From a virus, in IMG/VR virus record IMGVR_UViG_3300023179_000001, positions 1-64,000 of that record: DNA of 64,000 bases. One strand, given 5' to 3'. The notes under the pieces were generated by a model, which saw only the letters and a list, made by a program, of their open reading frames with translations, did not search any database and had not been told where the DNA came from. The number at the start of each line of letters is the position of its first letter. Position 1 is the stretch's first letter. Shown one piece after another: positions 26,136-43,366 of this stretch. Both the position numbers and the translations under genes were made by a program.

Positions 26136-27593
26136 TTATCCCAACGCTGGCTGTTTCAATCTGCCAATGTTCTTAATCTTTACCCAACCACGAGGTCGGA
26201 AAAGAATAGGAGTATTGTAGTACAACTGCATCCATCGGATGCTCGATGCTACGGTAGCTAGAGGGAATTTGAGCATCGGAGAAAGCTCACGAAGAGCTAA
26301 AACCGACTCATCCATCTGTCCGATATAAGCAACGCCCGCTCCTGGGAGGGTTTCGTTACCATCGAGTACGTTGGTTGTTGCACCAGCAGATGCGACTTCA
26401 GCCACAAGGTATTTTTTACCAGCAACACCGTCTTCAAGACGTGTGCGGTAAACTCTGTACCCTTGGGTTAAATCGTTACCTGATACGCTGCCACGAGTTA
26501 CGACGATCTTCACTTCTGAGTTTACGCTCGTCACAACTGCGTTAGCCGATCCTGCGGTAGCTGCCGATTCTCCCGAACGAGAGATTGCGGTTACTTCGTA
26601 TGCGTAGGTGCCATGCTCACCAGCTTGGAATCCACGGCTTGTGGACTTAGCTTGAACTGACACAACTGCGCTTGCAGGTGCGGTTGGTGCCATTGCATTG
26701 TCGGCTGCTGCTGGAGCAGTTTCGTCGACACGCAAGAACACGTCTGGACGAAGTTCTACAGTTCCACCAGGGGTTTTTACTTTGTCAGCAACAAAGCCAA
26801 CCATTGCATCAGCAGGAGTTACAGGAATTCCATAACGTCCTTTGCTGAAGAAGGCTTTGCTGAAATCGCTATGGGCCGTGAAAGGCAAATAGCAATGGGT
26901 TGGATACATATAGTTATCCAACAGAATTCTTGCGACTTCTGTGAAAACAGATTCGCTAAGAACATCGCCACGAAGATCAACAACGTGTTCTTCGGACACA
27001 GCAGGACGGCCATCACCAGCAGTGCTGGCATCGGCAATTCCTAGAGCGTGTTGACGATCAAGACCGTCAAAGCTTTCGGAGATGATGCTGCTGTTACCTT
27101 TGAACAGAGATTCTTCCATTCGTTGAAGCATCCATTTAGCTCCGTTTTTGGTTTCGAGAGCTACTACGTTTCCGTGAGCAGGTCGAACCAAGAGCATTGG
27201 ATGAGTGATTTCACGGGTTGTCCCCATGAATTTCACGAAGGCTGCCTTACGTTGATATTTGCTATCTTCGGTTCTAGGCAATCCACCTTCTTGAATAAAG
27301 AATCCACCACGTCCACCATAACTGGACAGTAGGTTGTACTCTTCAACAGTGTTGTATGCTTTTGTTTTTGGAATATCGTTATAAAGAACGATATTTTTTT
27401 CCATGAAGGACACGATTTTCAAAGTAGCATCTAAAGATTCTACTCGAAGTGCGCCTCCGTTTGATTGAGCAGCAGGATCGCTTGCGTATCCAGCACTCAG
27501 GGCTTTATTTAATTCAGCTACGGTCGTCTGATCGGAAACTCCGAACCCGTCCCCGTGGCCTTCGAATTGCTTAGGATCAAGTGTAGGTATCAT
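26136..27593 (-). CDS. Major capsid protein (SPO1/Twort-like)
   Basis: LNKALSAGY...GGALRVESLD, YNDIPKTKAYNTVEEY, LRELSPMLKFPLA, WVKIKNIG. Confidence 0.95.
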   Translation of the reverse strand: MIPTLDPKQFEGHGDGFGVSDQTTVAELNKALSAGYASDPAAQSNGGALRVESLDATLKIVSFMEKNIVLYNDIPKTKAYNTVEEYNLLSSYGGRGGFFIQEGGLPRTEDSKYQRKAAFVKFMGTTREITHPMLLVRPAHGNVVALETKNGAKWMLQRMEESLFKGNSSIISESFDGLDRQHALGIADASTAGDGRPAVSEEHVVDLRGDVLSESVFTEVARILLDNYMYPTHCYLPFTAHSDFSKAFFSKGRYGIPVTPADAMVGFVADKVKTPGGTVELRPDVFLRVDETAPAAADNAMAPTAPASAVVSVQAKSTSRGFQAGEHGTYAYEVTAISRSGESAATAGSANAVVTSVNSEVKIVVTRGSVSGNDLTQGYRVYRTRLEDGVAGKKYLVAEVASAGATTNVLDGNETLPGAGVAYIGQMDESVLALRELSPMLKFPLATVASSIRWMQLYYNTPILFRPRGWVKIKNIGRLKQPALG

Positions 27594-27603
27594 TTAGTCC
27601 TCC

Positions 27604-28434
27604 CTAGTTTAGCTTTTCTTTTAGTTTTGTTACCAATTCTGGACGGATGTAGCTTTGGGATTCAAAGCCAATCACATCGAGGTCGGTAGCATCACCAGAT
27701 TTTACCAACTCGCATAAGGCATCAGAAATTTGAGCCTTAGCCACGATTGGGTTATCAGACAAACTCTTGAAAACTTTTTCTTGAGTTTCTTCTAATCCTG
27801 AAGAGAATTCACGATCAGCAGGAGCAGCATCAGACTTAGCCACTGTTTCGCTCTTTTCAGTGCGAGCAGGTGCTTTGCTGACAACCCCGATGCGTTCGCA
27901 GATTGCTTTCAAGACGATTCCAACTTTGGCTTGTGATTCTTGAATTTCGGCAATGCCGTTTTCAAGAGTCTCAAGGCGACCTTTAGTGACTTCATTGGTG
28001 GATGACAATTCCTTTGCCAATCCATCAACTGCTTCACTGGTATGGTCAACCAAAGATTTTAAGAACTCAGACACATCAATCTTAGTCTGGATTTCTTCTG
28101 GAAGATCCTCAGAGAAAGATTTTTTAGCCTTTTTGTAAGACTTTTTCTCTTCTTTCTCTTCTTCTTTTTCTTCCATCATTTCGGGCATAGCTTTCTTGGC
28201 TTTTTTAGCCTTTTCAGCTTCTTCACCCTCTTCATCTTCAGCCATTTCTTCGCCTTCTTCTGCTTTTTTACAAGCAGCAGCTTTTTTGGCTTTAGCGGCA
28301 TCAGACATCTTTTCCTTTACAGGATTTCCCATGTCTGCGCCTTCTGGCTGATCAAGGTCTTGTTCTGAGGCTTTTACAACCTCTAAAGAATTAAGAGCCT
28401 TTTCGACATCTTCTTTAGTGATAGTCGTTTCCAT
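27604..28434 (-). CDS. Capsid scaffolding protein
   Basis: E/K/A-rich coiled coil with many KA/KS sites, between protease and capsid; start moved to the ATG with AAGGAG RBS. Confidence 0.75.
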   Translation of the reverse strand: METTITKEDVEKALNSLEVVKASEQDLDQPEGADMGNPVKEKMSDAAKAKKAAACKKAEEGEEMAEDEEGEEAEKAKKAKKAMPEMMEEKEEEKEEKKSYKKAKKSFSEDLPEEIQTKIDVSEFLKSLVDHTSEAVDGLAKELSSTNEVTKGRLETLENGIAEIQESQAKVGIVLKAICERIGVVSKAPARTEKSETVAKSDAAPADREFSSGLEETQEKVFKSLSDNPIVAKAQISDALCELVKSGDATDLDVIGFESQSYIRPELVTKLKEKLN

Positions 28435-28448
28435 TTCGACTCCTTTCA

Positions 28449-28664
28449 TCACAGTTTAAGTTCAATATCTTTAAGGTTTTCAACCAAAGATCCATAATCT
28501 TCGGCATCAACACCTTCGTCTGCGTCCAACTTTGCGGTGAGATCTCTCAAGGCTTGAGCGATTTCATCGAGCTTGGACATCACTGCTGCCATCTGCTTCG
28601 CTGGGGCATCATGTAAAACCTTCTGCCCTAGTTCGGCTTCAGACAATCTTCCTAGTTTTGTCAT
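28449..28664 (-). CDS. Small head-module protein
   Basis: AGGAGG RBS; LTAKLDADEGV motif. Confidence 0.65.
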   Translation of the reverse strand: MTKLGRLSEAELGQKVLHDAPAKQMAAVMSKLDEIAQALRDLTAKLDADEGVDAEDYGSLVENLKDIELKL

Positions 28665-29476
28665 GTTGCCTCCTTTTTAATAAAAAGTTTTGAAACGAGT
28701 AGCGCAGCGATCTCGTCAGAGAAGTCTGGCCTTCTTTCCAAAACAAACTCCATTGATTTTAGAAGATCGTTAAATTTTAACGCATCCTCTAAAGCCTTTT
28801 TCATCGCCTTCTTTCTCTCATCCATTACCTTCTTGGCTTTGGAATCAAGAGACTCTGTGCGAAGAGCACCACCGCCACTCTGCGTTGCAGGTGATACGCT
28901 ATAACCTGCTGCCATTGCTTTTTCTGCGATGTCTGGCTCTGAGAAAGATTTGCTTAAAAGCTCCCAAGAGCAATCTGTGTTCACAGGGCAGTTGGTGATA
29001 GCAACATTTCTGATTTTAGCTTTTTCGATTGTTTTATCTTCTCTGCGAATTACTTTGCCTTCGATAGAGAAGCCTAATTTTCTGTTTGGAACTGTAGAAA
29101 GTGCTTTAGCAAGTTCCCAAATAGCATCTGCTCTTGAGGTTCCTTTTAAAATATATCCTTCGCAAGTCCAACCTGCCACTCCTTTAAGCTTTGGGCTCCA
29201 TTCGTGAAGAGAAGCGTGGTACTCAGCTTTTTCTGGATAACCAACAATAGCTGATGTGGCTTGTGAGTGATTGTCGTTAAAATGTCCGTGGGTAAGGAAT
29301 TCGTCGAAATCAAGGCCATCTGCTTTTACGATTTCGCCTTGTCGATCTTTGCGGCTGGTGGACATGATTCCAGAGATTTTTCTGGAATTGTGGGCATCTT
29401 CTGATTTTTCAATAAAAGCGACTTCGCTCAACCAAACACGGAAATCGTTTTCACCAATGAAGAAATTTCTATCCAT
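28661..29476 (-). CDS. Prohead maturation protease
   Basis: GIMSTSRKDRQGE, FNDNH, LGFSIEG, VAITNCPVN (HK97/herpes-type His and Ser motifs). Confidence 0.92.
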   Translation of the reverse strand: MDRNFFIGENDFRVWLSEVAFIEKSEDAHNSRKISGIMSTSRKDRQGEIVKADGLDFDEFLTHGHFNDNHSQATSAIVGYPEKAEYHASLHEWSPKLKGVAGWTCEGYILKGTSRADAIWELAKALSTVPNRKLGFSIEGKVIRREDKTIEKAKIRNVAITNCPVNTDCSWELLSKSFSEPDIAEKAMAAGYSVSPATQSGGGALRTESLDSKAKKVMDERKKAMKKALEDALKFNDLLKSMEFVLERRPDFSDEIAALLVSKLFIKKEAT

Positions 29477-29601: not shown

Positions 29602-29835
29602 TTAATGATTATTAGAAACCGATTTTTCTTTTTTTGGTGCTACTTCGTAAACAAAACTTGATTGAATTGATTTTAATAGCTCAGTGCTGATTCCAACATC
29701 TTTCCCACAGGATTTGCAAACCGCATACATCCCGTTCTTGTCCCAATAGATAAGCTTCATACGAAACTTAGCCTGAGATTCGTATGATTTAATCATGTTG
29801 GATTGGCAATATGGACAATCTAAGTTCTTCATCAA
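29602..29835 (-). CDS. Small zinc-ribbon protein
   Basis: CPYC...CKSC. Confidence 0.7.
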   Translation of the reverse strand: MMKNLDCPYCQSNMIKSYESQAKFRMKLIYWDKNGMYAVCKSCGKDVGISTELLKSIQSSFVYEVAPKKEKSVSNNH

Positions 29836-31832
29836 ACACTCTTTTTTAACATTTTAATTTTTTCAATCAATTTTGATTTTTGTAACGCCAATCCCCTTTT
29901 ACCAAGGTAGGCTGGCGCATCTAAATCCACAACCAATGAAAAAGATTTTTTAGCTGGCTTCTTTTGTTCTTCAATCGCTGCGTCAATAAATGGAACCAAA
30001 GCGACTGGATCGATAATCTTGTTTGCCAATAATTGACTCATACCCTTATCGAGCGATTTGAAAATTTCTTCATGAGTAAGGCCAACTTCTGATAATTTTG
30101 ACTTTGGAATATCAATCAACTGGCTATCACCCCTCATTTGAACATATTTTCTAAGAGCAGCTTTGGCTATTCCTTCTTGATATTCTGCCTGAGAGCCGAG
30201 GTTTAAGCTCTGATCTTGGTTGAACCTTGCAGCTTGGGTTTGATAAGGATCTTTATCTCCAGATTTTTTAACGATGTAATTCCATGCTGGCATCAGATGA
30301 ATGGGCATCCATCCAGGTGGATACGCTGGCTTTCCATCTGCTTTCTTTACTGATGCGTCAAAAACTTCTTTTGGCACTGCGGTTCTGGTTGTACCAGCCC
30401 ATTCAGGTTTTTCACCGCCCTGCTCTGACCAACTTTTCAAATCTCCCCAAGTAGGCATTGGGGGAGGAGCAGAAGGATTTGCTTGATGCCAAGAATCTTT
30501 TACAAAAGGTTTTAGCCTAGCATATTGCTTTGCTGCATAACCTCTTTTAAATCTCTCAACTTCAATGTCTATTGGTTCGTTTCTAATAATCTCATCTAGA
30601 CCTACGAAAGTGCCTCTTTCAAATTCTTCAGAAATATTAGAAAGCCCCTGAACTCTTCTGCCAGAAATTTCTTTATATTTTTGTAGAATTGTCTCTTCAT
30701 TTAAGGTCGATCCAGCTTGTTCAATCGCCTGTAAAAGATGTTCTACAATTTGTTTTCTTGCTGGCTTTACATCGTTTTTGATTCTGGAAAATATTTCTTT
30801 GGCTCTTGCCAGATAAGCATTATTGCCAGAAGCCTGAGCCTCAACCATTCTGGTGACTGGGGCATCTGCTTGAACAAAATCTTCATTTGGCTGGGCCTGA
30901 GCTAACGCAGTATGAGAACGGGATCTTGGCCTTGATTCTTGTCGGATTATATCAGCCGCTTGTTGTGCTCTTTGTCTTGAAGCTTCGGCCACTGGTGCCG
31001 AAGTGGGCTCGGCTTGTGCTTGTGGAGATGTTAAATCTATTCCAAGCTCTTTTAGTTGTCTTAAAATGTCCTGCTCTTCGGATTGAGCTTGTGGCTGGGC
31101 TTGCGGCTGTGGCTCTGGCCGTGTCGCAGAAAGAATGGGAGTCGAAGATTCTGTTATTTTTCCAGCGTCTTTAAATTCTTTAAATGCTTGTTTTGCAGCT
31201 TCGTCGGCATCCACTCCACTCATATAGATTTCTTTTGCCCGTTGCGACAAAGGATTTGTTTGAAGGATGCTGATCTGATGCCCGTTCAGCTTTTGTTGCA
31301 AAACCGACTCTATGGTTCTTTTAATTCTTGAATTAAAAACACGCTCTGTTGTTGCTGCTGCTGGTGCTGGTGTTGCTGCTGCTGGTCTAGCGGCTCTTGT
31401 TCTTCTGGCAGGTCTAGCAGGAGCAGGTACACTGGGAGCAGGGGCGCTGGACTCTTCTTTGGACTGTTCTTCTACGGTATGAGCAGTTTGAATTTCATGC
31501 TCATCAAATTGATGGCCTCTTCTATGAGCATTATTGAAAATGTGCTTATTGTGAGTTTGGTCAAGATCTTCTCTGGACACACCAGCATGGGCAAGCATTT
31601 CGCCTCTGGTCATCTGATGATGCCCTTTAGCCTTAGCCTGAATCAATCGGGTCAAATGCTCAATCTTTGCCTGTAAGTGCGTTTGAGGAGATGCAGGATC
31701 ATCAGAAGATACAAGCCTTCCGTCTGGAAGCTTGTACCAATATTTATAATTGCCTGGGCTGCCTGTTCTCTTGATGTACTTGTGAGATCTTGCTTTAAAC
31801 AAGTCTGAATCAATTTCCAAAATTTCTTTCAT
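29832..31832 (-). CDS. Putative internal head/ejection protein
   Basis: N-terminal SDLFKARSHKYIKR motif shared with the 1895-aa protein; A/P-rich linkers; C-terminal KKSFSLVV. Confidence 0.6.
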   Translation of the reverse strand: MKEILEIDSDLFKARSHKYIKRTGSPGNYKYWYKLPDGRLVSSDDPASPQTHLQAKIEHLTRLIQAKAKGHHQMTRGEMLAHAGVSREDLDQTHNKHIFNNAHRRGHQFDEHEIQTAHTVEEQSKEESSAPAPSVPAPARPARRTRAARPAAATPAPAAATTERVFNSRIKRTIESVLQQKLNGHQISILQTNPLSQRAKEIYMSGVDADEAAKQAFKEFKDAGKITESSTPILSATRPEPQPQAQPQAQSEEQDILRQLKELGIDLTSPQAQAEPTSAPVAEASRQRAQQAADIIRQESRPRSRSHTALAQAQPNEDFVQADAPVTRMVEAQASGNNAYLARAKEIFSRIKNDVKPARKQIVEHLLQAIEQAGSTLNEETILQKYKEISGRRVQGLSNISEEFERGTFVGLDEIIRNEPIDIEVERFKRGYAAKQYARLKPFVKDSWHQANPSAPPPMPTWGDLKSWSEQGGEKPEWAGTTRTAVPKEVFDASVKKADGKPAYPPGWMPIHLMPAWNYIVKKSGDKDPYQTQAARFNQDQSLNLGSQAEYQEGIAKAALRKYVQMRGDSQLIDIPKSKLSEVGLTHEEIFKSLDKGMSQLLANKIIDPVALVPFIDAAIEEQKKPAKKSFSLVVDLDAPAYLGKRGLALQKSKLIEKIKMLKKSV

Positions 31833-31838
31833 ACACCC

Positions 31839-32753
31839 TCAATATTCAAAAACGTGGTCGCAACAATCTATATCGGAACCTAGACTTTTTCTTAAACCAG
31901 TTATTTTAGCTTGTTTCCCTGTATATGATAACTCTGCCTCACCGTCATCGTTAATAACAAAATCATATCCTTTAGGAATAAACATAAGCTGGCACTGGCA
32001 ATAAGGATGCAGTGGGCCAATCGTAGGAAGCCAATTTGCTACTTTTCTGCCGTAATTATTATCTGCTAAATCCGACAATCTGAAAACCTTTGGAGTTACT
32101 CTGTCTGATTTCATGTACGCAGCGAAACAGTGTTTGCATCCATCTGGATTAGGTCTTTTATAAACCAAAGCATCTCTGCCATGGGTTTCTCTGATTTCAT
32201 TAGCGATTCCGTTTTGGATTGCAGAAGTGACTTCGGTGGATGCGACTCGGTGCCAATCTCTGTTTCTATCGTCTATCGCATCAAACAATGCGGTCTTTAA
32301 TTCTGACACTGTTTTTCTCTGAGCTATTGATGTTGCGACCTGCTCTTGGACGGCCCTCACTGCGCTCATGCTTGATCTGGCTACGGCTCCTCGGACATCA
32401 CGCACCATATCATCTGACAATCCTTGAATGTACTGTCCTGCGTGTTCTTTGGCCCATCGGATAGCCTGTTCTTCAACACGAGTGGTTGGAAGCATCTTAG
32501 ATGCTCGTTTCAGAATTTCGTCAAACGGGATACCTCTGGCTTCATTTCGTTTAAACAAAGCAACGATTTTCCCAAGAGTATAAGAATCCCCAACCATATT
32601 TCTGGTATTTTGTCTTAGAAGTCCTGCGGCTTTTAATGCTCGAATCTCTGCATCCGACAGGGCTTGTGATCCCAAGGCTTCAAACGTAAATGAACTGAAT
32701 CTGCGACGTATGATGTCTTCAATCTGTTTTAGCTGCTCTTTTGTCAGCATCAA
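31839..32753 (-). CDS. Head morphogenesis protein (MuF/SPP1 gp7 family)
   Basis: RDWHRVASTEV, GCKHC, PLHPYCQC. Confidence 0.85.
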   Translation of the reverse strand: MMLTKEQLKQIEDIIRRRFSSFTFEALGSQALSDAEIRALKAAGLLRQNTRNMVGDSYTLGKIVALFKRNEARGIPFDEILKRASKMLPTTRVEEQAIRWAKEHAGQYIQGLSDDMVRDVRGAVARSSMSAVRAVQEQVATSIAQRKTVSELKTALFDAIDDRNRDWHRVASTEVTSAIQNGIANEIRETHGRDALVYKRPNPDGCKHCFAAYMKSDRVTPKVFRLSDLADNNYGRKVANWLPTIGPLHPYCQCQLMFIPKGYDFVINDDGEAELSYTGKQAKITGLRKSLGSDIDCCDHVFEY

Positions 32754-32914
32754 TCTTCACTTTCACCATTCATTTTTTTTAAGAATTTGGCAAAATCTGG
32801 ATCGTTCTGTTCAAAAAACTCATTAGCCATTTCTTCAAACTCATCCTGAAACATAGGATGGCTTTCGATTGGATCTTCATCAATGTGACTTGGTTTTTGT
32901 TTTTCATCGCTCAT
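32750..32914 (-). CDS. 54-aa acidic protein (absent from the ORF track)
   Basis: MSDEKQKPSHIDEDPIESHPMFQDEFEEMANEFFEQNDPDFAKFLKKMNGESED; AAGGA RBS; TGATG coupling to MuF. Confidence 0.75.
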   Translation of the reverse strand: MSDEKQKPSHIDEDPIESHPMFQDEFEEMANEFFEQNDPDFAKFLKKMNGESED

Positions 32915-32922
32915 AAAAATCC

Positions 32923-35900
32923 TTAAAACGGTTGTGGCTGAGGCTGCGCTTGAGTTGTTGGTTGTTGTAACTCTCTTCTAGCATTTAACAAAGAATTTTT
33001 CATAGCTCTTGTAATAGGTGCATTTGCCAAAAAATATTCAAAGTTAGGCTGAGTCATACCCAAAACAGATCGAACCCTACGCTTAGACATTACAATTCTT
33101 CTTTCACCTCTTCTCCACCAACTGATAGCTCTTTGTGCATGAGCCACTGCCGCCTGTTGATCTGGTGGAAGCTGTGGGGTTGGGGCTGGGGGAGGCTCAA
33201 CTCGTCGTGAACCAGATGCAGCCTGTCCCATCACATTGGAATATTCAGGCCCAAAGACCTTTGCTGCGGCTTCTTTCAATTCTACAAACTTCTCTGCAAA
33301 ACGAGATGCTATAGAATCTCTGTTTGAATCCCAGATTCCACGCCAACCCTTGCCCAACATAAACTTTTTACCCAAGTGAACCAACATTCGATAAGACTTT
33401 CCTTCGCTTATTTCTTGCTCTGTAAGCGGATACTCGCCTTCTACGCCATTTAAAGATTTGGTTGTTATTTGCTGATGAGAAAGTGGCATCCTTTCTTCTG
33501 AAGTAAAAATGTACTTTTTACCATTTGAAAACGCAGAAAAATGACAAGGCTCTTTAAACAGAGCAAGCTCGCTGGGTGTTAAACTTATTCCATAAGTAGA
33601 TAAAAAGTTTTTAAAAGAGTTTCTGTAGCCTGTAGCGTCAGAGTCGTGTTCAAAAGAAAAGCCCTGATTCGCCCATGTGTATCCACCCACATTTAAAGCA
33701 GCCGTAACCGTAACCGTTCCACCGTTCGGTTGTGCCTTCATCAACTTTCTTTGACCAACATTTATTAAATTCCCCAGTCTGGCTCCGTTTCTATGGGTTG
33801 TGTTAACCTTCAAATAATCATTGTGAATGTGTGGCCTTCCACCTCTACGATTCCAAGATCTTCGCCATTCGTTTGTAATTACTTCTCCGTTTTCTGTTTT
33901 GGCTTCGAGATCAAACCACAAACTACCTTCTGAGAACTGCAATCCTATAATTTTTACAGTTATTCCCTGAGCAGAAAAATCATAAGGCCAATCCTCTTTT
34001 CTCAGAGATCTGCCAAAAATAGATCTAATGCTTGCGTCCAATTCCCTAACCTGTTCTGCATTTAATCTAGTTCTTGAAATTTTAGAAATAAAATGAGCCA
34101 TAGAACCATGAAGCTCTGCTAGTGCTATTCGCTCTTGTTTTTTTCTTTCTTTTTCTTCTCTTTCTATTCTTTCTAGATGTTCTTGTATTTTTGGAACTTC
34201 AAAGTTATCGCCCGTTCTAGCTTGTAACAGGGCCGTTGAATAACCTGTAGGTAGCTGGTTGGCCTCTTCAAGTGCCTTTACCGCAGAAGTAAATCCAAGA
34301 TTGCCGTAGCCTCTGGCATCTCTGGCTAGGCTGTTTTGGTGTGTCAATCCCGAATGGATATTGTCCACTACCTTCATTTGTTCATGCAGCTTTTCTAAAA
34401 CACCCTTTATTGAATTGGCAGACTCTAATTGAGACATTACAGAATCAAGAGTAACTCCAGCAGAATTCAATCTTTTAAACTGCTCTGTATGTCTGTAGGT
34501 GGGGTTATCAAGATAACCAAAAATCTTTTCATTTAAAGATTGTTTTATATGTTTAATAAATTGGGCTTTCTTTTCTGGAGATTCAAAAGGCTTTTCAGAT
34601 TGATCTTGTGGCGGTGGTGGAGGAATTTCTGGTTGTAAATCTTCTTCTTGGAGAATTGGTATCCCCATGTTTTCCAGCGTTTCTTTAGCTCGCTTCCCAG
34701 ATTCCGTGTCGGCAAACCCTGTTGCAAGTCTCTGGAGTAAGTCTATCTTTTCGTGTGGGACTTCTTCCATTTCATCTATTATTTGCCTTGCCCTTGCGTT
34801 GCCCATCTCAGCCAATTTTTTAATTTTATTGAAAGCATTTTCGTCTATGGTTTTGGGCTTTTGACTTGGCTCATGATAAATATAGATCCAACGGCTTCCT
34901 CTACGATATTTCCGCAGATACTTGTGGGTTCTGGCCTTGAACAAATCCGAAGGAATAAAAAAGATTTCGTTTTTGTTAAGAATAGAATCAATTACAAAAA
35001 CAGCATCGCTTTTATGAAAAGACGCACGAATGTCGTCTAATGAAACTGGCTTTTCCATCCACTCTCTTTCCTCTTTGGTTAGCTGTTTTCCTTCGTTCAT
35101 TTTTCTATTTAATTCATATTTCTTTTTTACAATTTCTGACAAATTCACATCCCAATCGCTGTTTTGAGCGGTAATCCAGTAAACATTTACGTTGTTTCTT
35201 TGTCCAACACGATGGGCTCTGTCTTCTGCTTGTCTGACATCTGCCGCAGTCCAAGGCAGATCGTTAAAAACCACTTTGTCTGCTCGTGTTAAAGTCGCTC
35301 CTACTGCTAGGGATTGTCTTGTAGAAACAAAAACCCTTTTAGTTGAAGTTTCGTTTTGAAACTCCTCTTTAGCCTTTTCTCTGGCATCATCTGACATTTG
35401 ACCATGATGCAATATAGCGACATCTCCAAGCTCTTCTTTTAGCTTTTTGGCAGCATCTAGCGATTCTGTAAAAACCAAAACATTTGAATCAGAAGAGTCT
35501 ATAACTTCTTGCACAAAGTCTTTTGTGGCAGAGGTTTTTGCTATTGCTGCGACAACCCTGGCCGCACTCATTTCTCCGATGTCGGTTGGCAATCGAGGCA
35601 TACCCGAAACTGGTACTTCGGCAATTTGGGTTGTTTTTTCTGGTAAATCAGTAAGCACTTTCTTTTTCTGTCTAGCCAGATAAACACCGTTCTTTTTAAG
35701 CTTATTCCAAACCCCACCAATAGTTCCAAACTTCAAACCAAACCTAGAAAACAAGCCAGGTCTAATAATTTCTATTTGAGTATGAAGCTCCTCTTTTTTG
35801 TTTTTGATTGCCGTACCAGATAAAAGCATCTTGTGGGCAAACATGGGAGCCATCTCTGAAATCAGTTTTGTTGCTTTGGCTTTTGGATTTTTTATTCGAT

Positions 35901-38610
35901 GCGACTCATCAACAATAATAGCATCAAACCCAGCCGCTTCAATGGCTGGTCTAAACTTTTCTAAGGATTCGTAATTAACGGTAGCGATATTTACGTTTCT
36001 TAAATCAGGTGCTCCGTGTTTTAAATCTGCTGCGATTAGCTCTTTGGATTTGTTTTGAAAGTGTCCTGGGAAAAACTTTTCGGCCTCTTTAATCCAAGTC
36101 CTTCTGACAACCTTGGGACAAACAACCAAAACACGTTTGTTTTTACTTGCAACGAAAGCAAGAGATTGAAGCGTTTTTCCAAGCCCCATCTCATCGCCAA
36201 TCAGAGCATTACCATCGGCTGCTTCTAAAAATCTGACCGCCTCGTTTTGGTAGGGGAATAGTTTAAATTGGGGATCGAGCTTTTCAGAAACATGAGGAAT
36301 AGGCTTTCTTAGCTCTGCCTGTCTTTCTTCTTCTCTTCTGACCGCCTCATCAAAGCCTTCTGTGACCACTTCCCAATCTGGGAATCTTTCTTTGATTTTT
36401 TGAACGGCCTCTTGAGCCAGTTCTATTTCATAGGTTTCACGAGACTTTTCTGTGGGATTGTATTCCATGATCCCACTGATTTCCCCACCCCTGTTGGAGA
36501 AAAAGTTTACTAGCTTTGAATCGTATGGATGATAAAAACTTATCTTGTTGTCTGAGGATACCCTCACCCTCACAACCTTGCTGCTATCTCTGCCTTCGGA
36601 CTCTGGCAGTGGATCTGGTATGTGACTTAAAGATACTCCAAGTTCGCCCAAGCGTTGCTGATACTTTTCCCAATCAAATGTTTTTTCAACATCTCTTGGA
36701 ATTACCCAAACGAAATTACCATTTTCGTCGTTTCCACCCTTGAGCCTCATATCTCTATGAAGTTGGACATACTTCTCAAAATTATTTCTATTTAGTCTGC
36801 CATCAGACTTGAGAGGTAATTGAATAGTTTTGTAGGTACGATGCCTTTCTGGGACAACCATGTGAATGGTCGGATCTGAAAGCCCAGTATGCTCGTACTC
36901 TTCTTCTCCAAAATGTTGTGTCAACTGCCTTTTGTATTTTTTTAAGATGTTTCTAACTAAATTAAGAGATTGCGTCTGTATCTCTGGAGGCTGAAGCTTA
37001 ATTCTATCAAAAACGACCTTCCATCTTTGCTTGTCTAGCTTATTAAAACCAATTTCATTTAACTCTCTTGCATCGTCTTTGGAATTTAGGTGCTCACCCA
37101 TATCCAACAACTGCTCCATGCTATCATTGTCGCCATAGCGATGCGCTTCTTTTCCGTCCCTATTGTAGACGTAAACGGTTCTGCTCCCTTTTTGGTATTT
37201 CCTAATATAAAGATGATTTGGTCTGTCGGCCTTCTGCAAATACTCAAAATAGGTTGGATAATGAGCTTCAACTTCAAAGATAATTGATTTCTTAGTGTCC
37301 GAGTCCCAGCCTTCTGGTTGATACTCTGAAAAAACTTTTAAGAATTCTTTTTTGGACTCTGAATAGCCCATGGGCATTTGGCCTTTGTGCTTACTAGACA
37401 TTTGTTTAACAAACTTGTCTGCGTCTTCAAAGGAATCAAACTCTTTGATTTCAAGGTTAACTTTCTTTGGAGATCTAACAACAACAAAGTGCTTAATCTT
37501 ACCTTTTTCCTTTGTTTCAAAGCTTTCAAAGTTTTTCTTTTGTGCTCTCTCTTCTTTGGAGATTTTAGAGAAATCTTTTTTATTAAGCCGTTCTATGTCT
37601 TTCCAAGGAAATTTAATTCCATTGTCAGTTAGAATCTTTGGCTCTTTGGGTCTTTTTTCTGGTGAGTCCTGCTCTCCGGTGTCCAGCCCGTACAAATAAG
37701 CAGATAGTTCTGTAAGATATTGCGAAACTTCTTGGTTTCTTGGCTTCCCGTCCTCGCCCTTTCCAAACTCCTTAGCAAGCTCTTTGCTTGGCTTATAAAT
37801 AGTGTCGTGGGTAAAACCAGAAAATACCTGCTGCCTGTGTGTTTTGATTTGAAGTTCTGAAATCTTGCCAGAACTGGTTTTAAAAAGAACATGAATAGCC
37901 CTGTAGCCATCGGGCCTTGGCTTAGATGAAGAATCTTCTATCTCTACAATCTGAAAACTTTTTTTCATGTGCTCAAGAACCGATTTCTGATTTTCTATTG
38001 AATCAGATAGCGAGCGAGCACCAATAACATCGGTAGCTGTATTTAAAGATCTTTCTTTCAATCTGCCGTGCATCTTCTCATGCAGGGACAGTTTGTCTTT
38101 TAAACGATTTCCAAAATGCGATGCACCTGCCGCTTTTAGGGCAAAGCCCAGACCTTGTAATTCAACGTAATCGGGTTTGAACTTCTCAATAAAAAGTTCA
38201 ACATCTTTGACGCTGGTTTCTTTCCCAGGTTTTACAAAGCCTTCGTTTTCTGGTGGTGGAGGGCCAAGTCCGTTAGAAGGTCTGCCGTAATCTGCTGGTG
38301 TACCGCCCTCTTTTAAATGCTCTTCTCTTTTCTTGTGCTCTTCGGATGCTGTGGATTCTAGCTTGGCAGATAAAGCTTGTTCTATCTTTTTGATTTTTTC
38401 TTCAAAGTTTATCTTTTTTGTGGGCCTCTTTTGGCTCTGCTTTTCGTTTGTATTTTTTTTGCCAGTTGAGATGGGTCGCCAATCGCCTTCGGCAATTTTC
38501 TTATATCGCTGACCATTCCACTCGTGGACTGTGCCTATGGGTAAGCTGGCCTTTAGAATTAAATCTAAATCAAAGGATTTTACCCTTTTTTCTGTGATAA
38601 AAAAATTCAT
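32923..38610 (-). CDS. 1895-aa polyvalent protein: RelA/SpoT synthetase + HARP-SNF2 helicase + GNAT-like domain
   Basis: RLKDKLSLHEK, DVIGAR, GYRAIH, ELQIKT, HDTIYK (aa ~165-275); GDEMGLGKT, DESH, LSGT, QAEDRAHRVGQ (SNF2); GGYTWANQGFSF (GNAT-like, less certain). Confidence 0.85.
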   Translation of the reverse strand: MNFFITEKRVKSFDLDLILKASLPIGTVHEWNGQRYKKIAEGDWRPISTGKKNTNEKQSQKRPTKKINFEEKIKKIEQALSAKLESTASEEHKKREEHLKEGGTPADYGRPSNGLGPPPPENEGFVKPGKETSVKDVELFIEKFKPDYVELQGLGFALKAAGASHFGNRLKDKLSLHEKMHGRLKERSLNTATDVIGARSLSDSIENQKSVLEHMKKSFQIVEIEDSSSKPRPDGYRAIHVLFKTSSGKISELQIKTHRQQVFSGFTHDTIYKPSKELAKEFGKGEDGKPRNQEVSQYLTELSAYLYGLDTGEQDSPEKRPKEPKILTDNGIKFPWKDIERLNKKDFSKISKEERAQKKNFESFETKEKGKIKHFVVVRSPKKVNLEIKEFDSFEDADKFVKQMSSKHKGQMPMGYSESKKEFLKVFSEYQPEGWDSDTKKSIIFEVEAHYPTYFEYLQKADRPNHLYIRKYQKGSRTVYVYNRDGKEAHRYGDNDSMEQLLDMGEHLNSKDDARELNEIGFNKLDKQRWKVVFDRIKLQPPEIQTQSLNLVRNILKKYKRQLTQHFGEEEYEHTGLSDPTIHMVVPERHRTYKTIQLPLKSDGRLNRNNFEKYVQLHRDMRLKGGNDENGNFVWVIPRDVEKTFDWEKYQQRLGELGVSLSHIPDPLPESEGRDSSKVVRVRVSSDNKISFYHPYDSKLVNFFSNRGGEISGIMEYNPTEKSRETYEIELAQEAVQKIKERFPDWEVVTEGFDEAVRREEERQAELRKPIPHVSEKLDPQFKLFPYQNEAVRFLEAADGNALIGDEMGLGKTLQSLAFVASKNKRVLVVCPKVVRRTWIKEAEKFFPGHFQNKSKELIAADLKHGAPDLRNVNIATVNYESLEKFRPAIEAAGFDAIIVDESHRIKNPKAKATKLISEMAPMFAHKMLLSGTAIKNKKEELHTQIEIIRPGLFSRFGLKFGTIGGVWNKLKKNGVYLARQKKKVLTDLPEKTTQIAEVPVSGMPRLPTDIGEMSAARVVAAIAKTSATKDFVQEVIDSSDSNVLVFTESLDAAKKLKEELGDVAILHHGQMSDDAREKAKEEFQNETSTKRVFVSTRQSLAVGATLTRADKVVFNDLPWTAADVRQAEDRAHRVGQRNNVNVYWITAQNSDWDVNLSEIVKKKYELNRKMNEGKQLTKEEREWMEKPVSLDDIRASFHKSDAVFVIDSILNKNEIFFIPSDLFKARTHKYLRKYRRGSRWIYIYHEPSQKPKTIDENAFNKIKKLAEMGNARARQIIDEMEEVPHEKIDLLQRLATGFADTESGKRAKETLENMGIPILQEEDLQPEIPPPPPQDQSEKPFESPEKKAQFIKHIKQSLNEKIFGYLDNPTYRHTEQFKRLNSAGVTLDSVMSQLESANSIKGVLEKLHEQMKVVDNIHSGLTHQNSLARDARGYGNLGFTSAVKALEEANQLPTGYSTALLQARTGDNFEVPKIQEHLERIEREEKERKKQERIALAELHGSMAHFISKISRTRLNAEQVRELDASIRSIFGRSLRKEDWPYDFSAQGITVKIIGLQFSEGSLWFDLEAKTENGEVITNEWRRSWNRRGGRPHIHNDYLKVNTTHRNGARLGNLINVGQRKLMKAQPNGGTVTVTAALNVGGYTWANQGFSFEHDSDATGYRNSFKNFLSTYGISLTPSELALFKEPCHFSAFSNGKKYIFTSEERMPLSHQQITTKSLNGVEGEYPLTEQEISEGKSYRMLVHLGKKFMLGKGWRGIWDSNRDSIASRFAEKFVELKEAAAKVFGPEYSNVMGQAASGSRRVEPPPAPTPQLPPDQQAAVAHAQRAISWWRRGERRIVMSKRRVRSVLGMTQPNFEYFLANAPITRAMKNSLLNARRELQQPTTQAQPQPQPF

Positions 38611-38849
38611 ATATCTTTAATAATTTCAGATATTTCTACCTTGATTTCATCAAGCATTTTCTTAAATCTTTTATCCCAATACTCCATGATTTCGTGTTGT
38701 GCTTTAAAATAGGGAGGTCGTTCTTGACCAAAGATCTTCTGGCCCTTGACTCTGACCTCAACATCCAACTTGTCCTTGGCTAAAGCTTTAATTAGCTCTT
38801 CTCGTTTGGCATCTAGTTCGTCCTTCGTGCCCTCGATGGTAAGCCTCAT
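38607..38849 (-). CDS. Hypothetical protein
   Basis: GAGG RBS; ATGA overlaps at both ends. Confidence 0.7.
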   Translation of the reverse strand: MRLTIEGTKDELDAKREELIKALAKDKLDVEVRVKGQKIFGQERPPYFKAQHEIMEYWDKRFKKMLDEIKVEISEIIKDI

Positions 38850-40615
38850 AGCTTTATTTCCTCAAAAAAACGGGCACTTTGACTCTTTTGAGTCTGACCT
38901 TTGGCTTGAGATTCTAGCTTATCTAACTCGGCTTGCAGTTCTTCAACGCTCATGTTCTCGTAGTCTGGCTCTTGCGTGTCGCCCTGAGCTTGAACTTCTG
39001 GATTGTCCCCAGATGACATTCCTGGTTGTCCTGCTAGCTGCCCTAGTGGTGTCAAACCGTCTTGTCCCATCGCCCCTTCTGGCTGCGGCATCTGACTTTG
39101 AATAAAGTTGATAAGCGAAGAATCTAAAACCACGTCGCCTGGGTTTTTGATTTTCTCAAAATCAGGCAAAGGCTTCATATCGTGCTCGGCTCTGATTTCA
39201 TTGATAGTCTTAAAGTTTTTGACCATCTGGACGCATTTATCTAAGTCGTCTTTTTCAGTAGAGGCATTTAAACCTACAAACTCCAGTTCAAAGTTTGGAT
39301 CAAGTCTCCAGATAATATAGTTGTTTAGCAAACTCTCAACGTGAGCGAGTAGCGGTCTTAGTCCTTTATCTTTTGAGTATTCTAATCTTTCACCTTGGTT
39401 TCCGCTTCCAAGACCGCCTGAGCCTGAGTTTTGTCCTGAGCCTTGCTTAGAAATATCAAAACCAATTTCGATAGGATCAATCATGAACACACCGCAGATG
39501 GTCTTGATACAGTATTCAAGCCACTTGCCGAATTCCATCTCTCTGTTGGTTGAGTGGAGAGATTGCCAATTCATTTTTCCATCTTTGCCAAGAGCCATGA
39601 TTGGGGTTCGCCAAGCGTTATTTACCCCAGTGACCTGTGCGTACCACTGTCTTCTAAACGCTTCTAATTGATCGGGTGGAACCATCCCCTCGAAAGTTAA
39701 AATCCCCTTTATTGAAGAGCCTTGAGAGAAGAATTTTCGGTTGTATGTTTCAGCGTTCATATGTGACGTGATAGTTGTCACAAGCATTTCAATTTCGCTA
39801 AATCCATAACCTAGAGCAGTCATATCTGTTCTAGGATTTCTCACTCCAAAAGCCATTTCCCATTCATCGTAAACGTGTCGTTTTACTCCGTTGATAACCT
39901 GGCAGAATTTAGGATGCTTTGGTTTAAACTCTTTAAAGTATTTATCTGCACCATAGTCGATTACGAATTGGGATTCTTTGGTGCTTTGGTTGTAGTCGAA
40001 TCTCTCAACCATTTCCTTTTTGTCTGGGATGATTCGTATAGTCGAAGCATCGACCGCAAGGAATGAATAGGGTTTACCATCGTTTCGGGGGACGATTTCA
40101 AAGTTGACCTGATCGAAGGTGAGACTGTCTCTAGTGATTTTTCTTAGGAAAGTCTCAAAATCATCACGCCTTTTCATCTCTGGAGTGTCCTCAAAGTTTT
40201 CTGGAACCCCACAGTTTTGAATGAACTGTTCTATTTCTTTGATGCGTTTTTCTTCGGCCTTGGACGGGCTTTTATCATCATCTCTAAGTTTGATTTTAAA
40301 ACCCAATGCGTATTTGTCTTTGGCTACTCGTTTGAATGTAGCGACCTGATTGGTTCGTGTCTGAATGATTGATGCGACAATAGGATCTGCGTATGTGATT
40401 TGTCGGCATTTGTCGTAGGAAAGGATTGAATACTTTTCTTTATATCCAAACGAGGTTTGGCCGTAGGCCAGTGGATCCACTAGGGACGATTTGGAATCGT
40501 AGGCTTGCCTGTCTGGAGTGAGAAGACCTGCCTTCATCAACTCATAGCGAATCGGTAGGATTTCCTCTTTTACAAACTCTACCGATTTGGTTAGTGCGTC
40601 TTTTACGATTCCCAT
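38846..40615 (-). CDS. Portal protein (herelle-like)
   Basis: IIQTRTNQV, RDSLTFDQVNFE, VRNPRTD..GYGFSEIE, FFSQG, DPIEIGF, SKDKGLRPLL, TINEIR. Confidence 0.95.
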   Translation of the reverse strand: MGIVKDALTKSVEFVKEEILPIRYELMKAGLLTPDRQAYDSKSSLVDPLAYGQTSFGYKEKYSILSYDKCRQITYADPIVASIIQTRTNQVATFKRVAKDKYALGFKIKLRDDDKSPSKAEEKRIKEIEQFIQNCGVPENFEDTPEMKRRDDFETFLRKITRDSLTFDQVNFEIVPRNDGKPYSFLAVDASTIRIIPDKKEMVERFDYNQSTKESQFVIDYGADKYFKEFKPKHPKFCQVINGVKRHVYDEWEMAFGVRNPRTDMTALGYGFSEIEMLVTTITSHMNAETYNRKFFSQGSSIKGILTFEGMVPPDQLEAFRRQWYAQVTGVNNAWRTPIMALGKDGKMNWQSLHSTNREMEFGKWLEYCIKTICGVFMIDPIEIGFDISKQGSGQNSGSGGLGSGNQGERLEYSKDKGLRPLLAHVESLLNNYIIWRLDPNFELEFVGLNASTEKDDLDKCVQMVKNFKTINEIRAEHDMKPLPDFEKIKNPGDVVLDSSLINFIQSQMPQPEGAMGQDGLTPLGQLAGQPGMSSGDNPEVQAQGDTQEPDYENMSVEELQAELDKLESQAKGQTQKSQSARFFEEIKL

Positions 40616-40634
40616 TTCAAACCCCTAGTTCAAT

Positions 40635-42227
40635 CTAACATTCTACAGTAACGCCTTGCGTGGCATCAATCACTACCGAGCCGTCGTTTTCTGCATCTGC
40701 TTGAGATTGCATCATCTCAATCAGGGCTGCATCTGTTTCTGAAGTAGCCTTGATAACCTCACCGTTCATTTTGAGTTGTGATTTGTTGTACTCGTTTTTA
40801 ACGGCTGGCTTAGACGGATCATCATACAGTGTGCCATTCTCATAGGCTTCTTTTACTTGCTCATCGAATCCTTTTTCGAGTGTTTTCCCAGTTGTGGTCT
40901 GCATCTCAACCGTTGCCTGTCCTGTTTGAACATAGGAATCAAGAGCCTTTTGATAGGCTTGATCTTGGTTTTGAACCGTTGCTTGTTGGATGGGATCAGC
41001 GTTTTGAGTCAATAACTCAGTGGCCTTATCTGCAAAGATATTCCCTGTCTTAGTTCCAAAGTTAAATACAATTCCACCTTTACCCATTGATCGAACAAAC
41101 TGATAGGGGACTTGAGGTCTTTGAACCGTATTCTCGTGAACTCTTTTCAGCTTTCTCACATCTGTTTGATCAGAAATCATTTCGATTAGTGAATCTAAAG
41201 ACTTATCAACTTTCTTTTTCTCTAGTTTCTCAGCGATTTTCTTATGCTGTTTCTCGTGAGCATCTAGTTTTTTATTTCCATCAAAATCAAATTTCTCGTC
41301 TTCTGCTTTCTTGGTGCAGGAACCTTCGCTATAAGGTTTTTTACCTGGGGTTGGTTTATAGCCTTCCCAGCAGCGACCTTCTTTCTCACCTTTATCTACT
41401 TCTTTTAATTCTTTTTTCTGCTCTTTAGCTTCTTTTTTATCGTCCTTTTTGGATGGGGATTCGAGTACACCCACTAGCTTTTTATGCTCTGCAACGAACT
41501 TCTCTTTAGGCATTTTTACTTCTGCTTTGGAGATTTCGTCTAGTGCTTTTAAAAGCAGTTCTTCTTTTGATAAAGAACGCTCGACTTCTTCGACCTGATG
41601 ATCAACATCGGCTAGAGGCATTTCTTTTCCGTGAAATTCTTCACCGTGTTGTTTATCTAGTTCTTCAATGCGTGGCTGCTTGCGTTTTTCTTGCTTGGGA
41701 GTCCGTAAAATCACCATCATCGTGGGAGTAGACAATTCAACTGAGCCTTTGTTGATTTGATCGTCTAGTCTGTCTCTGGATGATTTTTCCATGCCTTGAC
41801 GTGTAGGTAGGTGATTAGAAACTTTTTCTGTGTCGATTGTGGATTGCTCTGATTTTACGAGAGAAGGTGCGTCACCTACTGTAAATCCTAAAGATGATAG
41901 TTGATCCTTTTTCATATTAGCCTCTGACTTTTTAGCTGGTTTATTAGTAGGCCACAAATCCCTGCAAGCCCAATATCCAGGTTTTGTTTTATCTGTCTTT
42001 TCAGAACAGTTGTGTCGTGCTCTAAAATTCTTTTTAGCCCCCTCGGAGTAGTTATGCTTATAGTTCGTATCTCCGTAGTGAACTGTTTTTACATTTCCCG
42101 TCGAAGGATCTTTAACGTAGACCTTTTTCTTTTTCCCAGGTCTATCACTCTGCATGGGTTTATTGAGAGGCTTATCAGCCTTCTCAATAATTTCTTCTAA
42201 TAGTTCTTTAATCTTCATTAGTTTCAA
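40635..42227 (-). CDS. Putative internal head polyprotein
   Basis: VYVKDPSTGNVK...FRARHNC...YWAC and CWEGYK...SC mini-domains; repeated KS/KA sites. Confidence 0.6.
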   Translation of the reverse strand: MKLMKIKELLEEIIEKADKPLNKPMQSDRPGKKKKVYVKDPSTGNVKTVHYGDTNYKHNYSEGAKKNFRARHNCSEKTDKTKPGYWACRDLWPTNKPAKKSEANMKKDQLSSLGFTVGDAPSLVKSEQSTIDTEKVSNHLPTRQGMEKSSRDRLDDQINKGSVELSTPTMMVILRTPKQEKRKQPRIEELDKQHGEEFHGKEMPLADVDHQVEEVERSLSKEELLLKALDEISKAEVKMPKEKFVAEHKKLVGVLESPSKKDDKKEAKEQKKELKEVDKGEKEGRCWEGYKPTPGKKPYSEGSCTKKAEDEKFDFDGNKKLDAHEKQHKKIAEKLEKKKVDKSLDSLIEMISDQTDVRKLKRVHENTVQRPQVPYQFVRSMGKGGIVFNFGTKTGNIFADKATELLTQNADPIQQATVQNQDQAYQKALDSYVQTGQATVEMQTTTGKTLEKGFDEQVKEAYENGTLYDDPSKPAVKNEYNKSQLKMNGEVIKATSETDAALIEMMQSQADAENDGSVVIDATQGVTVEC

Positions 42228-42717
42228 TCCTAATATGAGTTATATCGATCTGCCCATACATATCGGTCAAACCCTTTTTAATTTTATTATTTAGCTCTTT
42301 TTCTGATTGAGCCCTGATGCTCTTCATCAACACTTGTTGCTCCGTCCCATCTTGTGTTGAAAAAGTGATTGAAGCATTGAATGTTTTTGTGGGCTCTTCT
42401 TTGTGCAGAATCTTATCTAAATTACCTTTTTGTAAATCGTTTGAAAGTTCTTTTAGACCTTTGGTGAGATGAACGTACTTGTCGTAAAAATCATCTGTGG
42501 TTCTATAACCTTCAACCGAGTGACCTCGGCTTTCCCAATAAGATGTTTCATAAGGAATGAATCCACCTTCGGGCATCCATTTATAGTGTTGAGCGAAAGG
42601 AGAATCGGGGCCGACCACCATGGGGTCTAAAGATATGGCTTTCTTTAGATCATTTTTCAGCCCCTTCTCTATCGTATCATCCAATAAAGCTGCTATCTCG
42701 TCCAGTTCCATTTTCAC
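42208..42717 (-). CDS. Hypothetical, possible head-associated protein
   Basis: IEKG, LKKA, LQKG, LMKS motifs; upstream of the portal cluster. Confidence 0.6.
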   Translation of the reverse strand: MKMELDEIAALLDDTIEKGLKNDLKKAISLDPMVVGPDSPFAQHYKWMPEGGFIPYETSYWESRGHSVEGYRTTDDFYDKYVHLTKGLKELSNDLQKGNLDKILHKEEPTKTFNASITFSTQDGTEQQVLMKSIRAQSEKELNNKIKKGLTDMYGQIDITHIRIETNED

Positions 42718-43366
42718 CGTCGTACTCCATTAAAGTAGGGATGCCTTCAACAAGTTCTATTTCGACATCGCATGAATCGCAATTAAAGTTTACCACGTTT
42801 TCGGATACACAGGTTTCTTCTAAACATTTTGGGCAAGCAAAAGCTACTAACTTAAATGATGCACCAAACCATTCGTGCACATCTGCTTTTATTTTTTTTA
42901 ATACCTGTGATGCCCAACTCTGAGAAAACCCAAACTCTTCGGCTATCTCTTTTAGGTTATAACCTTGGAGTCGCTTTGTGAGAATGAGTTTTTCGGTCTG
43001 AGTTAGTTTTGAATTGTTGATAAAGCTTGTCAAAGTAAGTTTTGATTCCATAGCTCTTTCGGTTGAGTATTTCTCTTCGATTTGAGAAAAATCAAAATCT
43101 ATGGATTGAATAGGTCTTTTGTTTTTTAGACGCTCTGAGCCGATAAGCTTTCTAACCTCATCAAGTACGGCTCCTCGGATGCGGTAGTTTGCGTAGGTTT
43201 TAAACTTTACACCACGACTAGGATCGAATCTGGTTAAGCACTGAGCATAGCCTTCAAACCCTGCGCTCATTAGTTCGTTTAAATCTAATTTATGTAATCT
43301 TTTCTCTTTGACGGTTCTAAGAACAACTATCTTAATCCACTGGACAATCCTGTTATCCATAGACAC
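42677..43366 (-). CDS. RNA polymerase sigma factor, FliA/WhiG (sigma28)-like, with C-terminal zinc ribbon
   Basis: ELMSAGFEG..RFDPSRGVKFKTYANYRIRGAVLDEVRK (region 2); YNLKEIAEEFGFSQSWASQV (region 4); CPKC..CDSC. Confidence 0.88.
   Translation of the reverse strand: MSMDNRIVQWIKIVVLRTVKEKRLHKLDLNELMSAGFEGYAQCLTRFDPSRGVKFKTYANYRIRGAVLDEVRKLIGSERLKNKRPIQSIDFDFSQIEEKYSTERAMESKLTLTSFINNSKLTQTEKLILTKRLQGYNLKEIAEEFGFSQSWASQVLKKIKADVHEWFGASFKLVAFACPKCLEETCVSENVVNFNCDSCDVEIELVEGIPTLMEYDGENGTGRDSSFIG

Follow-up and report, generated by a model that had tools for sequence, protein, structure and literature searches.

Repeated linker-hairpin tags in a head-module polyvalent protein of an uncultured phage may mark its enzymes for packaging and release

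Which proteins a phage injects, and how they are chosen for packaging, is known for few model phages, namely T4, P1, phiKZ-like phages and N4. N-terminal capsid-targeting signals have been described for the T4 internal proteins and for P1 DarB (PMC9024508), and the T4 protease gp21 recognizes an I/L-x-E cleavage motif (PMC12991175). The largest predicted class of injected effectors comprises the polyvalent proteins, whose listed domains include RelA/SpoT, SWI2/SNF2 and GNAT; their packaging and injection were predicted, and processing by embedded zincin-like peptidases was proposed (PMC5512222), but beyond these proposed metallopeptidases the class has neither a defined signal for loading nor a defined rule for processing. 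Here we analyze a 64,000-nucleotide stretch (the window), the first 64 kb of the 103.9-kb virus record IMGVR_UViG_3300023179_000001 from an uncultured phage. Its head module encodes an 1895-residue protein, p1895 (32923..38610), in which unrelated enzymatic domains alternate with recurring tags, each consisting of a linker with two candidate cleavage sites and a hairpin. On balance we favor a load-and-release scheme, every step of which is inferred, in which this tagged polyprotein is packaged, cut by the head protease and ejected. Coordinates throughout are window positions, and all head-module genes and features discussed lie on the minus strand.

p1895 is a phage polyvalent protein, a known class, because it joins unrelated enzymatic domains in one large phage polypeptide whose gene lies among virion genes (the definition of Iyer et al. 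2017), and we hold with good confidence that it is virion cargo. Its open reading frame (ORF) and Pfam matches give the order tag A, RelA/SpoT-like domain, tag B, SNF2 helicase, tag C and GNAT-like module. The RelA/SpoT-like nucleotidyltransferase domain (residues 169-276; 37783..38106) matches Pfam PF04607 at 6.3e-13, with 49.4 bits against a gathering cut-off of 27. The SNF2 helicase core (residues 782-1136; 35203..36267) is recognized by the Pfam models SNF2-rel_dom (1.8e-25), ResIII and Helicase_C (3.1e-14) and by phrog_62, a DNA helicase family (1.1e-77). The last 670 residues form a module found in every relative, which has no Pfam match. For its core (residues ~1509-1780; 33271..34086), the AlphaFold2 model has a mean predicted local distance difference test score (pLDDT) of 86.9; Foldseek ranks GNAT acetyltransferases first (E 2.8e-3, probability 0.85-0.99), and GNAT proteins make up almost the whole top 50 in VIA-align, with Z 6.7 (the tool's caution line is 8) and a root-mean-square deviation of 4.8 Å over 148 residues. 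We treat the GNAT resemblance as a fold-level lead, not as proof of activity.

The three tags of p1895 share a linker with paired candidate sites, K11↓S and K20↓A, K441↓S and K460↓A, and K1200↓S and K1225↓A (arrows mark the candidate bonds). Tag A (residues 9-47; 38470..38586) runs from K11↓S through a spacer to LILK20↓A and the hairpin PIGTVHEW..YKK..GDWRPI. Tag B (residues 439-482; 37165..37296) consists of TKK441↓S, a spacer, YLQK460↓A, the residues DRPN and the hairpin HLYIRKYQKGSRTVYVY; this HLY variant also opens proteins of a relative's locus (L003) and of a database match (P0006), just ahead of the SNF2 domain. In tag C (residues 1198-1315; 34666..35019), FHK1200↓S, a spacer and DLFK1225↓A are followed by RT and an HKY hairpin with a four-helix domain. 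A further copy opens the neighboring 666-residue protein p666 (29832..31832), whose N-terminal tag (residues 1-33; 31734..31832) reads MKEILEIDSDLFK13↓ARS and continues with HKYIKRTGSPGNYKYWY; residues 3-69 of p666 are 34% identical to residues 1215-1275 of p1895, and the copies are homologous. The preliminary description, made from the letters of the window, had proposed a single signature present three times in p1895, each copy at a domain boundary, with its LxKA and HKY half opening p666. Every string it quoted is present, the homology of the copies exceeds chance, the p666 copy with its site K13↓A holds, and both the Pfam coordinates and the module borders in relatives place the p1895 copies at domain boundaries. 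The double-site linker recurs in all three, but the first copy departs from the others in its hairpin, which is of a different type (PIGTxHxY..G..YKK...GxW.P). This variant is conserved in relatives, where tag A's linker and hairpin are kept in carrier proteins resembling p169, the 169-residue product of another head-module gene.

The spacer of tag B (window 37231-37287; p1895 residues 442-460) contains the string AHYPTYFEY; the relative P0013 retains the flanking EGWDSETKK↓SIIFE and lacks that string.

The tag unit is widespread and its plan is constant. A phmmer search with p1895 residues 1195-1270 against 1.84 billion representatives returned 62 matches, 17 of them at E<=1e-10, and many carry 2-4 copies; P0034, P0048, P0050 and P0052 were rejected as tags, being weak low-complexity matches. 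In relatives the unit reads [K/R]-[S/A], a hydrophobic spacer, D-L-x-K-[A/S/G], 1-9 residues and HKY[IL]RKY..G.W.Y.YHE. A K-[A/S/G/T] pair lies no more than 14 residues upstream of the hairpin in 55 of the 58 copies from other proteins (26 A, 14 S, 13 G and 2 T), and a second [K/R]-[S/A] lies farther upstream in 45 of the 58, with a spacer mostly of 9 residues (range 6-35). The linker lysine is nearly invariant overall and fully so in two alignments, A1 (NUDIX-tag-GNAT-like proteins) and A2. An AlphaFold2 model of p1895 residues 1190-1320 gives the linker a pLDDT of 45-56, so that it is predicted to be disordered, and folds the hairpin and four helices into one domain with a pLDDT above 90. 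A local hidden Markov model of the tag included the window's own copies, which biases its E-values for those copies; the phmmer result is unbiased.

The linker rule and the hairpin domain appear to be undescribed so far, although the protein class is known. The four tag segments gave nothing relevant in Pfam at E<=10, and PHROGs returned nothing for the tags. Foldseek comparison of the hairpin domain with the PDB and BFVD yielded no match better than E 0.08, and the ESM Atlas gave no usable match. The motif strings had no match in a literature search, and neither the tag linker nor the HKY hairpin occurs in Iyer 2017 (PMC5512222).

Related phages swap enzymatic modules at the tags. Queried with the alignment of NUDIX-tag-GNAT-like proteins, IMG/VR yielded 19 loci, 18 of them of the window's clade; searching for related loci with a single tag as query gave no confirmed locus. 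Where a clade locus includes the capsid gene, capsid identity is 69-79%, and in 10 or more loci the order is kept as p169-like, p530-like, portal, polyvalent protein, MuF-like, p666-like, protease, scaffold and capsid. The polyvalent protein occupies the slot between the portal and MuF-like genes, ranges from 657 to 2300 residues and has one to three tags, between which lie NUDIX, LPD1, SNF2, RelA/SpoT and GNAT-like modules. In L006, L007 and L018 the RelA/SpoT module (p1895 residues 3-454) either stands as its own gene or belongs to a different fusion. The final residues of the L018 protein, ...FSEYRPEGWEA, stop three short of the position of K441, and the L003 protein begins with tag B and proceeds to SNF2. 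In three orthologues of p666 the N terminus is M-R-[SG]-HKY, which lies a single residue from the cut predicted after K13. As far as sequences tell, module borders coincide with tags in related phages, and the domain swapping between conserved tags that the preliminary description had anticipated is seen for the NUDIX, SNF2, RelA/SpoT, LPD1 and GNAT-like modules.

The linker motif resembles the maturation site of the major capsid protein. That protein (26136..27593) matches phrog_752 (2e-89) and SPO1 Gp6.1 (PDB 9vel, E 2.7e-83) and is ~40% identical to its counterparts in SPO1-like Bacillus Herelleviridae. Its propeptide (residues 1-30; 27504..27593), kept in 9/9 orthologues, ends ELNK30↓ALSAGY, which aligns to DVVK24↓SFQTGY of a Staphylococcus phage capsid. 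The PDB chain 9row_B has 439 residues and starts at the Ser of DVVK24↓S, and the full-length chain 5lii_P has 463; that this start is the true mature N terminus we infer from the deposited chain length. Because 9row_B begins at the Ser aligned to the capsid site, the maturation cut in this capsid family most likely falls after the lysine, as K↓A or K↓S, and not after the dipeptide KA, where it had previously been placed. Aligned on this bond, the tag motif D-L-x-K↓[ASG] and the capsid motif E-L-N-K↓A agree at P4, P3, P1 and P1'. The cargo carries a capsid-type cleavage motif (capsid E-L-N-K↓A, tag D-L-F-K↓A), with the likeness confined to P4-P1'. A proteomics paper on a Listeria phage makes no mention of cleavage.

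The same double-site pattern recurs in the head-maturation protease (28661..29476), which is of the Herelleviridae type (phrog_1028, 9.2e-53) and has no sequence match in Pfam or the PDB. Here residues 172-217 (28826..28963) comprise LLSK176↓SFSEPDIAEK186↓A and, after it, a second version of the mature capsid N-arm, 62% identical to capsid residues 30-61. Both K176 and K186 are conserved in 11/11 orthologues, and the protease of the cultured Bacillus phage SP-10 has the same double site ahead of a capsid-like segment. We regard this double site as a candidate for self-cleavage. Because SP-10 shares the arrangement, the capsid N-arm copy in the protease tail seems to be a family-wide way to tether the protease to the shell and then release it.

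Sites of this type are concentrated in head proteins once the residues before the lysine are considered. The dipeptides alone are not enriched there (KA, 49 observed vs 37 expected; KS, 40 vs 35), whereas KA or KS with an aliphatic or aromatic residue at position -2 relative to the lysine is found 44 times vs 17.7 expected, the rest of the genome having 109 vs 84.5. The earlier proposal that the motif is commoner in head genes holds for this extended form and fails for plain KS or KA. Within the first 32 residues, [LIV]-x-K-[AGS] occurs in 8/9 head-module proteins and 12/109 others, one of the 12 being an 80-residue ORF inside the head module; the Fisher p of 1.4e-6 is inflated, as the motif was defined after the data had been seen. 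SP-10 provides a partly independent check, with the N-terminal motif in 4/4 head proteins (portal, protease, scaffold-position protein and capsid) vs 1/12 neighbors. The scaffold-like acidic/basic protein (27604..28452), encoded between the protease and capsid genes, has K↓[AS] sites at K27, K111, K132, K182, K200, K229 and K239 that are 80-100% conserved among orthologues just 38-54% identical. In the portal protein (38846..40615; Pfam Phage_portal, 2e-21), the candidate N-terminal site YELMK28↓AGLL is retained, as K28-A, in all orthologues with an intact N terminus. The 530-residue protein p530 (40635..42227), which matches phrog_220, 'minor head protein and DNA pilot', over residues 22-116 (5e-16), has an N-terminal EIIEK16↓A. 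Of the KS and KA sites that had been listed for other head proteins, a subset is conserved in orthologues and many reflect chance.

The hairpin also occurs apart from polyproteins. At locus L019 (L019-L021) of another record, IMGVR_UViG_3300005265_000001, 13 consecutive genes of 125-381 residues, at 22.4-39.3 kb, each open with the hairpin, beginning with M, one to a few residues and HKYLRKY.GKNGKW.YIYKE. Of the cargo, two parts have matches to known domains, PRTase and DUF3626. The array lies between replication and tail genes, upstream of the tail-sheath gene, and the record, which is 58% complete, contains no homologue of the window's capsid or protease. In these genes the hairpin behaves like a portable N-terminal label, as it does in relatives of the window's phage, where modules encoded on their own likewise start with it. 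That the hairpin and the [LIV]-x-K↓[AGS] linker form a portable packaging and release code of several unrelated uncultured lineages, used in a polyprotein here and in a 13-gene array elsewhere, is possible but doubtful.

In the load-and-release scheme, the cargo would enter the assembling prohead, with the hairpin domain serving as a common handle. The prohead protease would then cut after the lysines in the linkers, as it would in the capsid propeptide, the scaffold, the portal N terminus and its own tail. Cutting of p1895 would release three hairpin-led proteins: a RelA/SpoT-like protein of ~48 kDa, an SNF2 helicase of ~85 kDa and a protein of ~76 kDa combining the HKY domain with the GNAT-like module. 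The released enzymes would then accompany the DNA out of the capsid and work in the next host at an early stage. We lean toward cleavage of the linkers by the head protease; a role of the hairpin as the address for packaging is plausible but put forward more tentatively.

Several points weigh against this scheme. Beyond the inflated p-value and the mature capsid terminus taken from a chain length, a weight matrix built from the tag linkers was rejected as a general cleavage predictor, as it ranks the window's own tags and protease K240 at the top and leaves the capsid site outside the top 45. In head proteins, lysines before Ala or Ser show just slightly higher conservation than the remaining lysines (p about 0.09). 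The p666 orthologues that lack the propeptide indicate that it is dispensable for that protein's role. The record with the array lacks head genes by which the array could be tied to packaging, and, since the array copies lack the upstream linker, hairpin and cut site are separable. Finally, tblastn with tag C and the p666 N terminus found no match in 50,697 GenBank phage records, the clade being uncultured and metagenomic.

The strongest rival is that p1895 stays uncut and is packaged and ejected as one 215-kDa chain, like N4 vRNAP and P1 DarB. Its tags would then be flexible linkers joined to a repeated nucleic-acid- or protein-binding domain, with the conserved lysine and hydrophobic run used in binding or folding rather than cleavage. 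The hairpin has the strongly basic, aromatic character that a domain binding DNA or RNA would have, some phage and plasmid cargo proteins, such as N4 vRNAP, are packaged or transferred at full length (PMC5512222), and both the failure of the tag-trained matrix at the capsid site and the lack of general KS or KA enrichment speak for this view. Against it, a linker predicted to be disordered nevertheless retains an invariant lysine with a small residue after it and D-L at P4-P3, the usual pattern of a short linear motif that an enzyme recognizes. The double-site linker, moreover, stands ahead of hairpins of two unrelated types and is found again in the protease, beside a capsid-like segment, and the modules are separate genes in relatives. 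We consider an uncut chain rather unlikely.

Cleavage of the linkers by some other enzyme, whether a protease of the host or a peptidase activity concealed within p1895, is improbable. Embedded metallopeptidases are the published processing model for the class (PMC5512222), and residues 500-780 and 1316-1440 of p1895 have no assigned fold, but neither Pfam nor PHROGs identifies a peptidase family in p1895 or eight relatives, and the sole HExxH of p1895 lies inside the RelA/SpoT domain. The conserved C-terminal module was considered as a self-processing peptidase and rejected, its fold being GNAT-like. The linker motif, furthermore, agrees with the sites in this head module's own capsid protein and protease.

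Equally improbable is that these proteins are not virion cargo at all, their head-module position reflecting late co-expression of enzymes that act on phage DNA or host metabolism in the producing cell and the hairpin being an oligomerization or localization domain unrelated to capsids: the setting of the 13-gene array, flanked by replication and tail genes on a record that lacks head genes, would suit this view, but the slot between the portal, MuF-like and protease genes is conserved, the adjoining p530 matches a DNA-pilot family, the N-terminal [LIV]xK[AGS] is common to capsid, scaffold and portal, and the domain set is typical of packaged polyvalent proteins (PMC5512222).

The load-and-release scheme is set in a head module of the Herelleviridae type, evidently with cargo genes inserted between portal and protease. 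In order of transcription, the genes encode the 169-residue protein, the 530-residue protein, the portal, the 80-residue ORF, p1895, a small acidic ORF, a 304-residue MuF-like protein, p666, the protease, the scaffold-like protein and the capsid. In the cultured relative SP-10 the protease gene directly follows the portal gene, so the genes for p1895, the MuF-like protein and p666 would constitute a cargo insertion. p666 itself has no known domain and no Pfam or PHROG match, and its orthologues lie between the MuF-like and protease genes in 11 loci; it was rejected as a paralogue of the C-terminal module of p1895, with which it shares 14% identity and the tag alone. Near its C terminus is another double site, AKK629↓SFSLVVDL ... 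LALQK652↓S (29835..29954), with K629-S in 12/12 orthologues and K652-[SAG] in 11/12. Residues 627-666 resemble a tag linker with no hairpin after it, the second K↓S lying 23 residues on, and may constitute a removable C-terminal tail.

The 304-residue protein (31839..32753) is kept in relatives at 47-60% identity. It had been called MuF at the outset, but the protein does not match the MuF/SPP1 gp7 model (Pfam PF04233, Phage_Mu_F), which just 1/11 orthologues reaches, at E 0.35. Its C..C ... HP.C.C motif and its module position are suggestive of MuF, and we call it MuF-like. Between its gene and that of p1895 lies the small, strongly acidic ORF of ~54 residues (window about 32756-32917), and ten related loci have ORFs of 33-65 residues in this gap, of at least two sequence types; the acidic protein could be a chaperone or inhibitor of the neighboring enzyme module.

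At the upstream end of the module, p169 (42208..42717) is the short form of a family whose members in relatives have 266-1035 residues and a common N-terminal domain of ~105 residues. In those relatives (L006:4693-6414, L018:2897-6004, L014:5529-6521 and L001:4635-6689), the domain is fused to variable parts, including tag A with the RelA/SpoT module. By sequence comparison, variable cargo thus has a second slot at the p169 position, ahead of the portal. A 229-residue protein (42677-43366) taken from the ORF listing, with features of sigma-factor region 4 and a C-terminal CxxC...CxxC, directly precedes the head module.

More broadly, the locus offers a rule that can be tested from sequence, namely a disordered linker with a capsid-type lysine motif, joined to a small folded hairpin domain that every product would retain. 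If this rule is true, injected proteomes of metagenomic phages could be predicted from sequence, and the exchange of enzyme modules between relatives would be accounted for. It would also provide a handle for loading reporters or foreign proteins into the capsids of laboratory phages.

Of the described systems, the polyvalent proteins are closest. Like them, p1895 combines several unrelated domains (RelA/SpoT, SWI2/SNF2 and a GNAT-like fold, with NUDIX and LPD1 in relatives), its gene lies among late and virion genes beside a MuF-like gene, and packaging and injection with the DNA are predicted. Unlike the published model, it has no embedded zincin-like peptidase detectable by Pfam or PHROGs, and unlike the polyvalent proteins of PMC5512222, it carries a conserved double-lysine linker and an HKY hairpin, for which there is no Pfam model. 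The phiKZ and SPN3US systems are similar in that a single protease processes many head-internal proteins at a short consensus, and the incorporation of these proteins into the head is tied to their propeptides (PMC10052503, PMC7411985). These are jumbo phages, however, with a T4-gp21-like protease and with cargo encoded separately rather than as a tag-repeat polyprotein.

P1 DarB offers a different parallel, as a 250-kDa helicase-containing anti-restriction protein of the head whose gene lies beside those for the portal and prohead protease, and whose N-terminal signal of no more than 30 residues suffices to load a reporter (PMC9024508). By contrast with the processing proposed for p1895, DarB is a single 250-kDa virion protein for which cutting into enzymes is not reported (PMC9024508); its signal has no sequence similarity to the tag, and the P1 capsid is cut after Glu (E120↓S121). 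With the T4 internal proteins and Alt, the window shares short N-terminal cargo segments and their proposed removal by the protease that trims the capsid, which in T4 is gp21, and its motif resembles that of gp21 in having an aliphatic P3 and a charged P1. It differs from T4 in placing Lys instead of Glu at P1, and its candidate sites are internal and paired and would split a polyprotein into enzymes. Whereas T4 discards a 10-residue peptide, the likely handle here is a folded domain that the product would keep.

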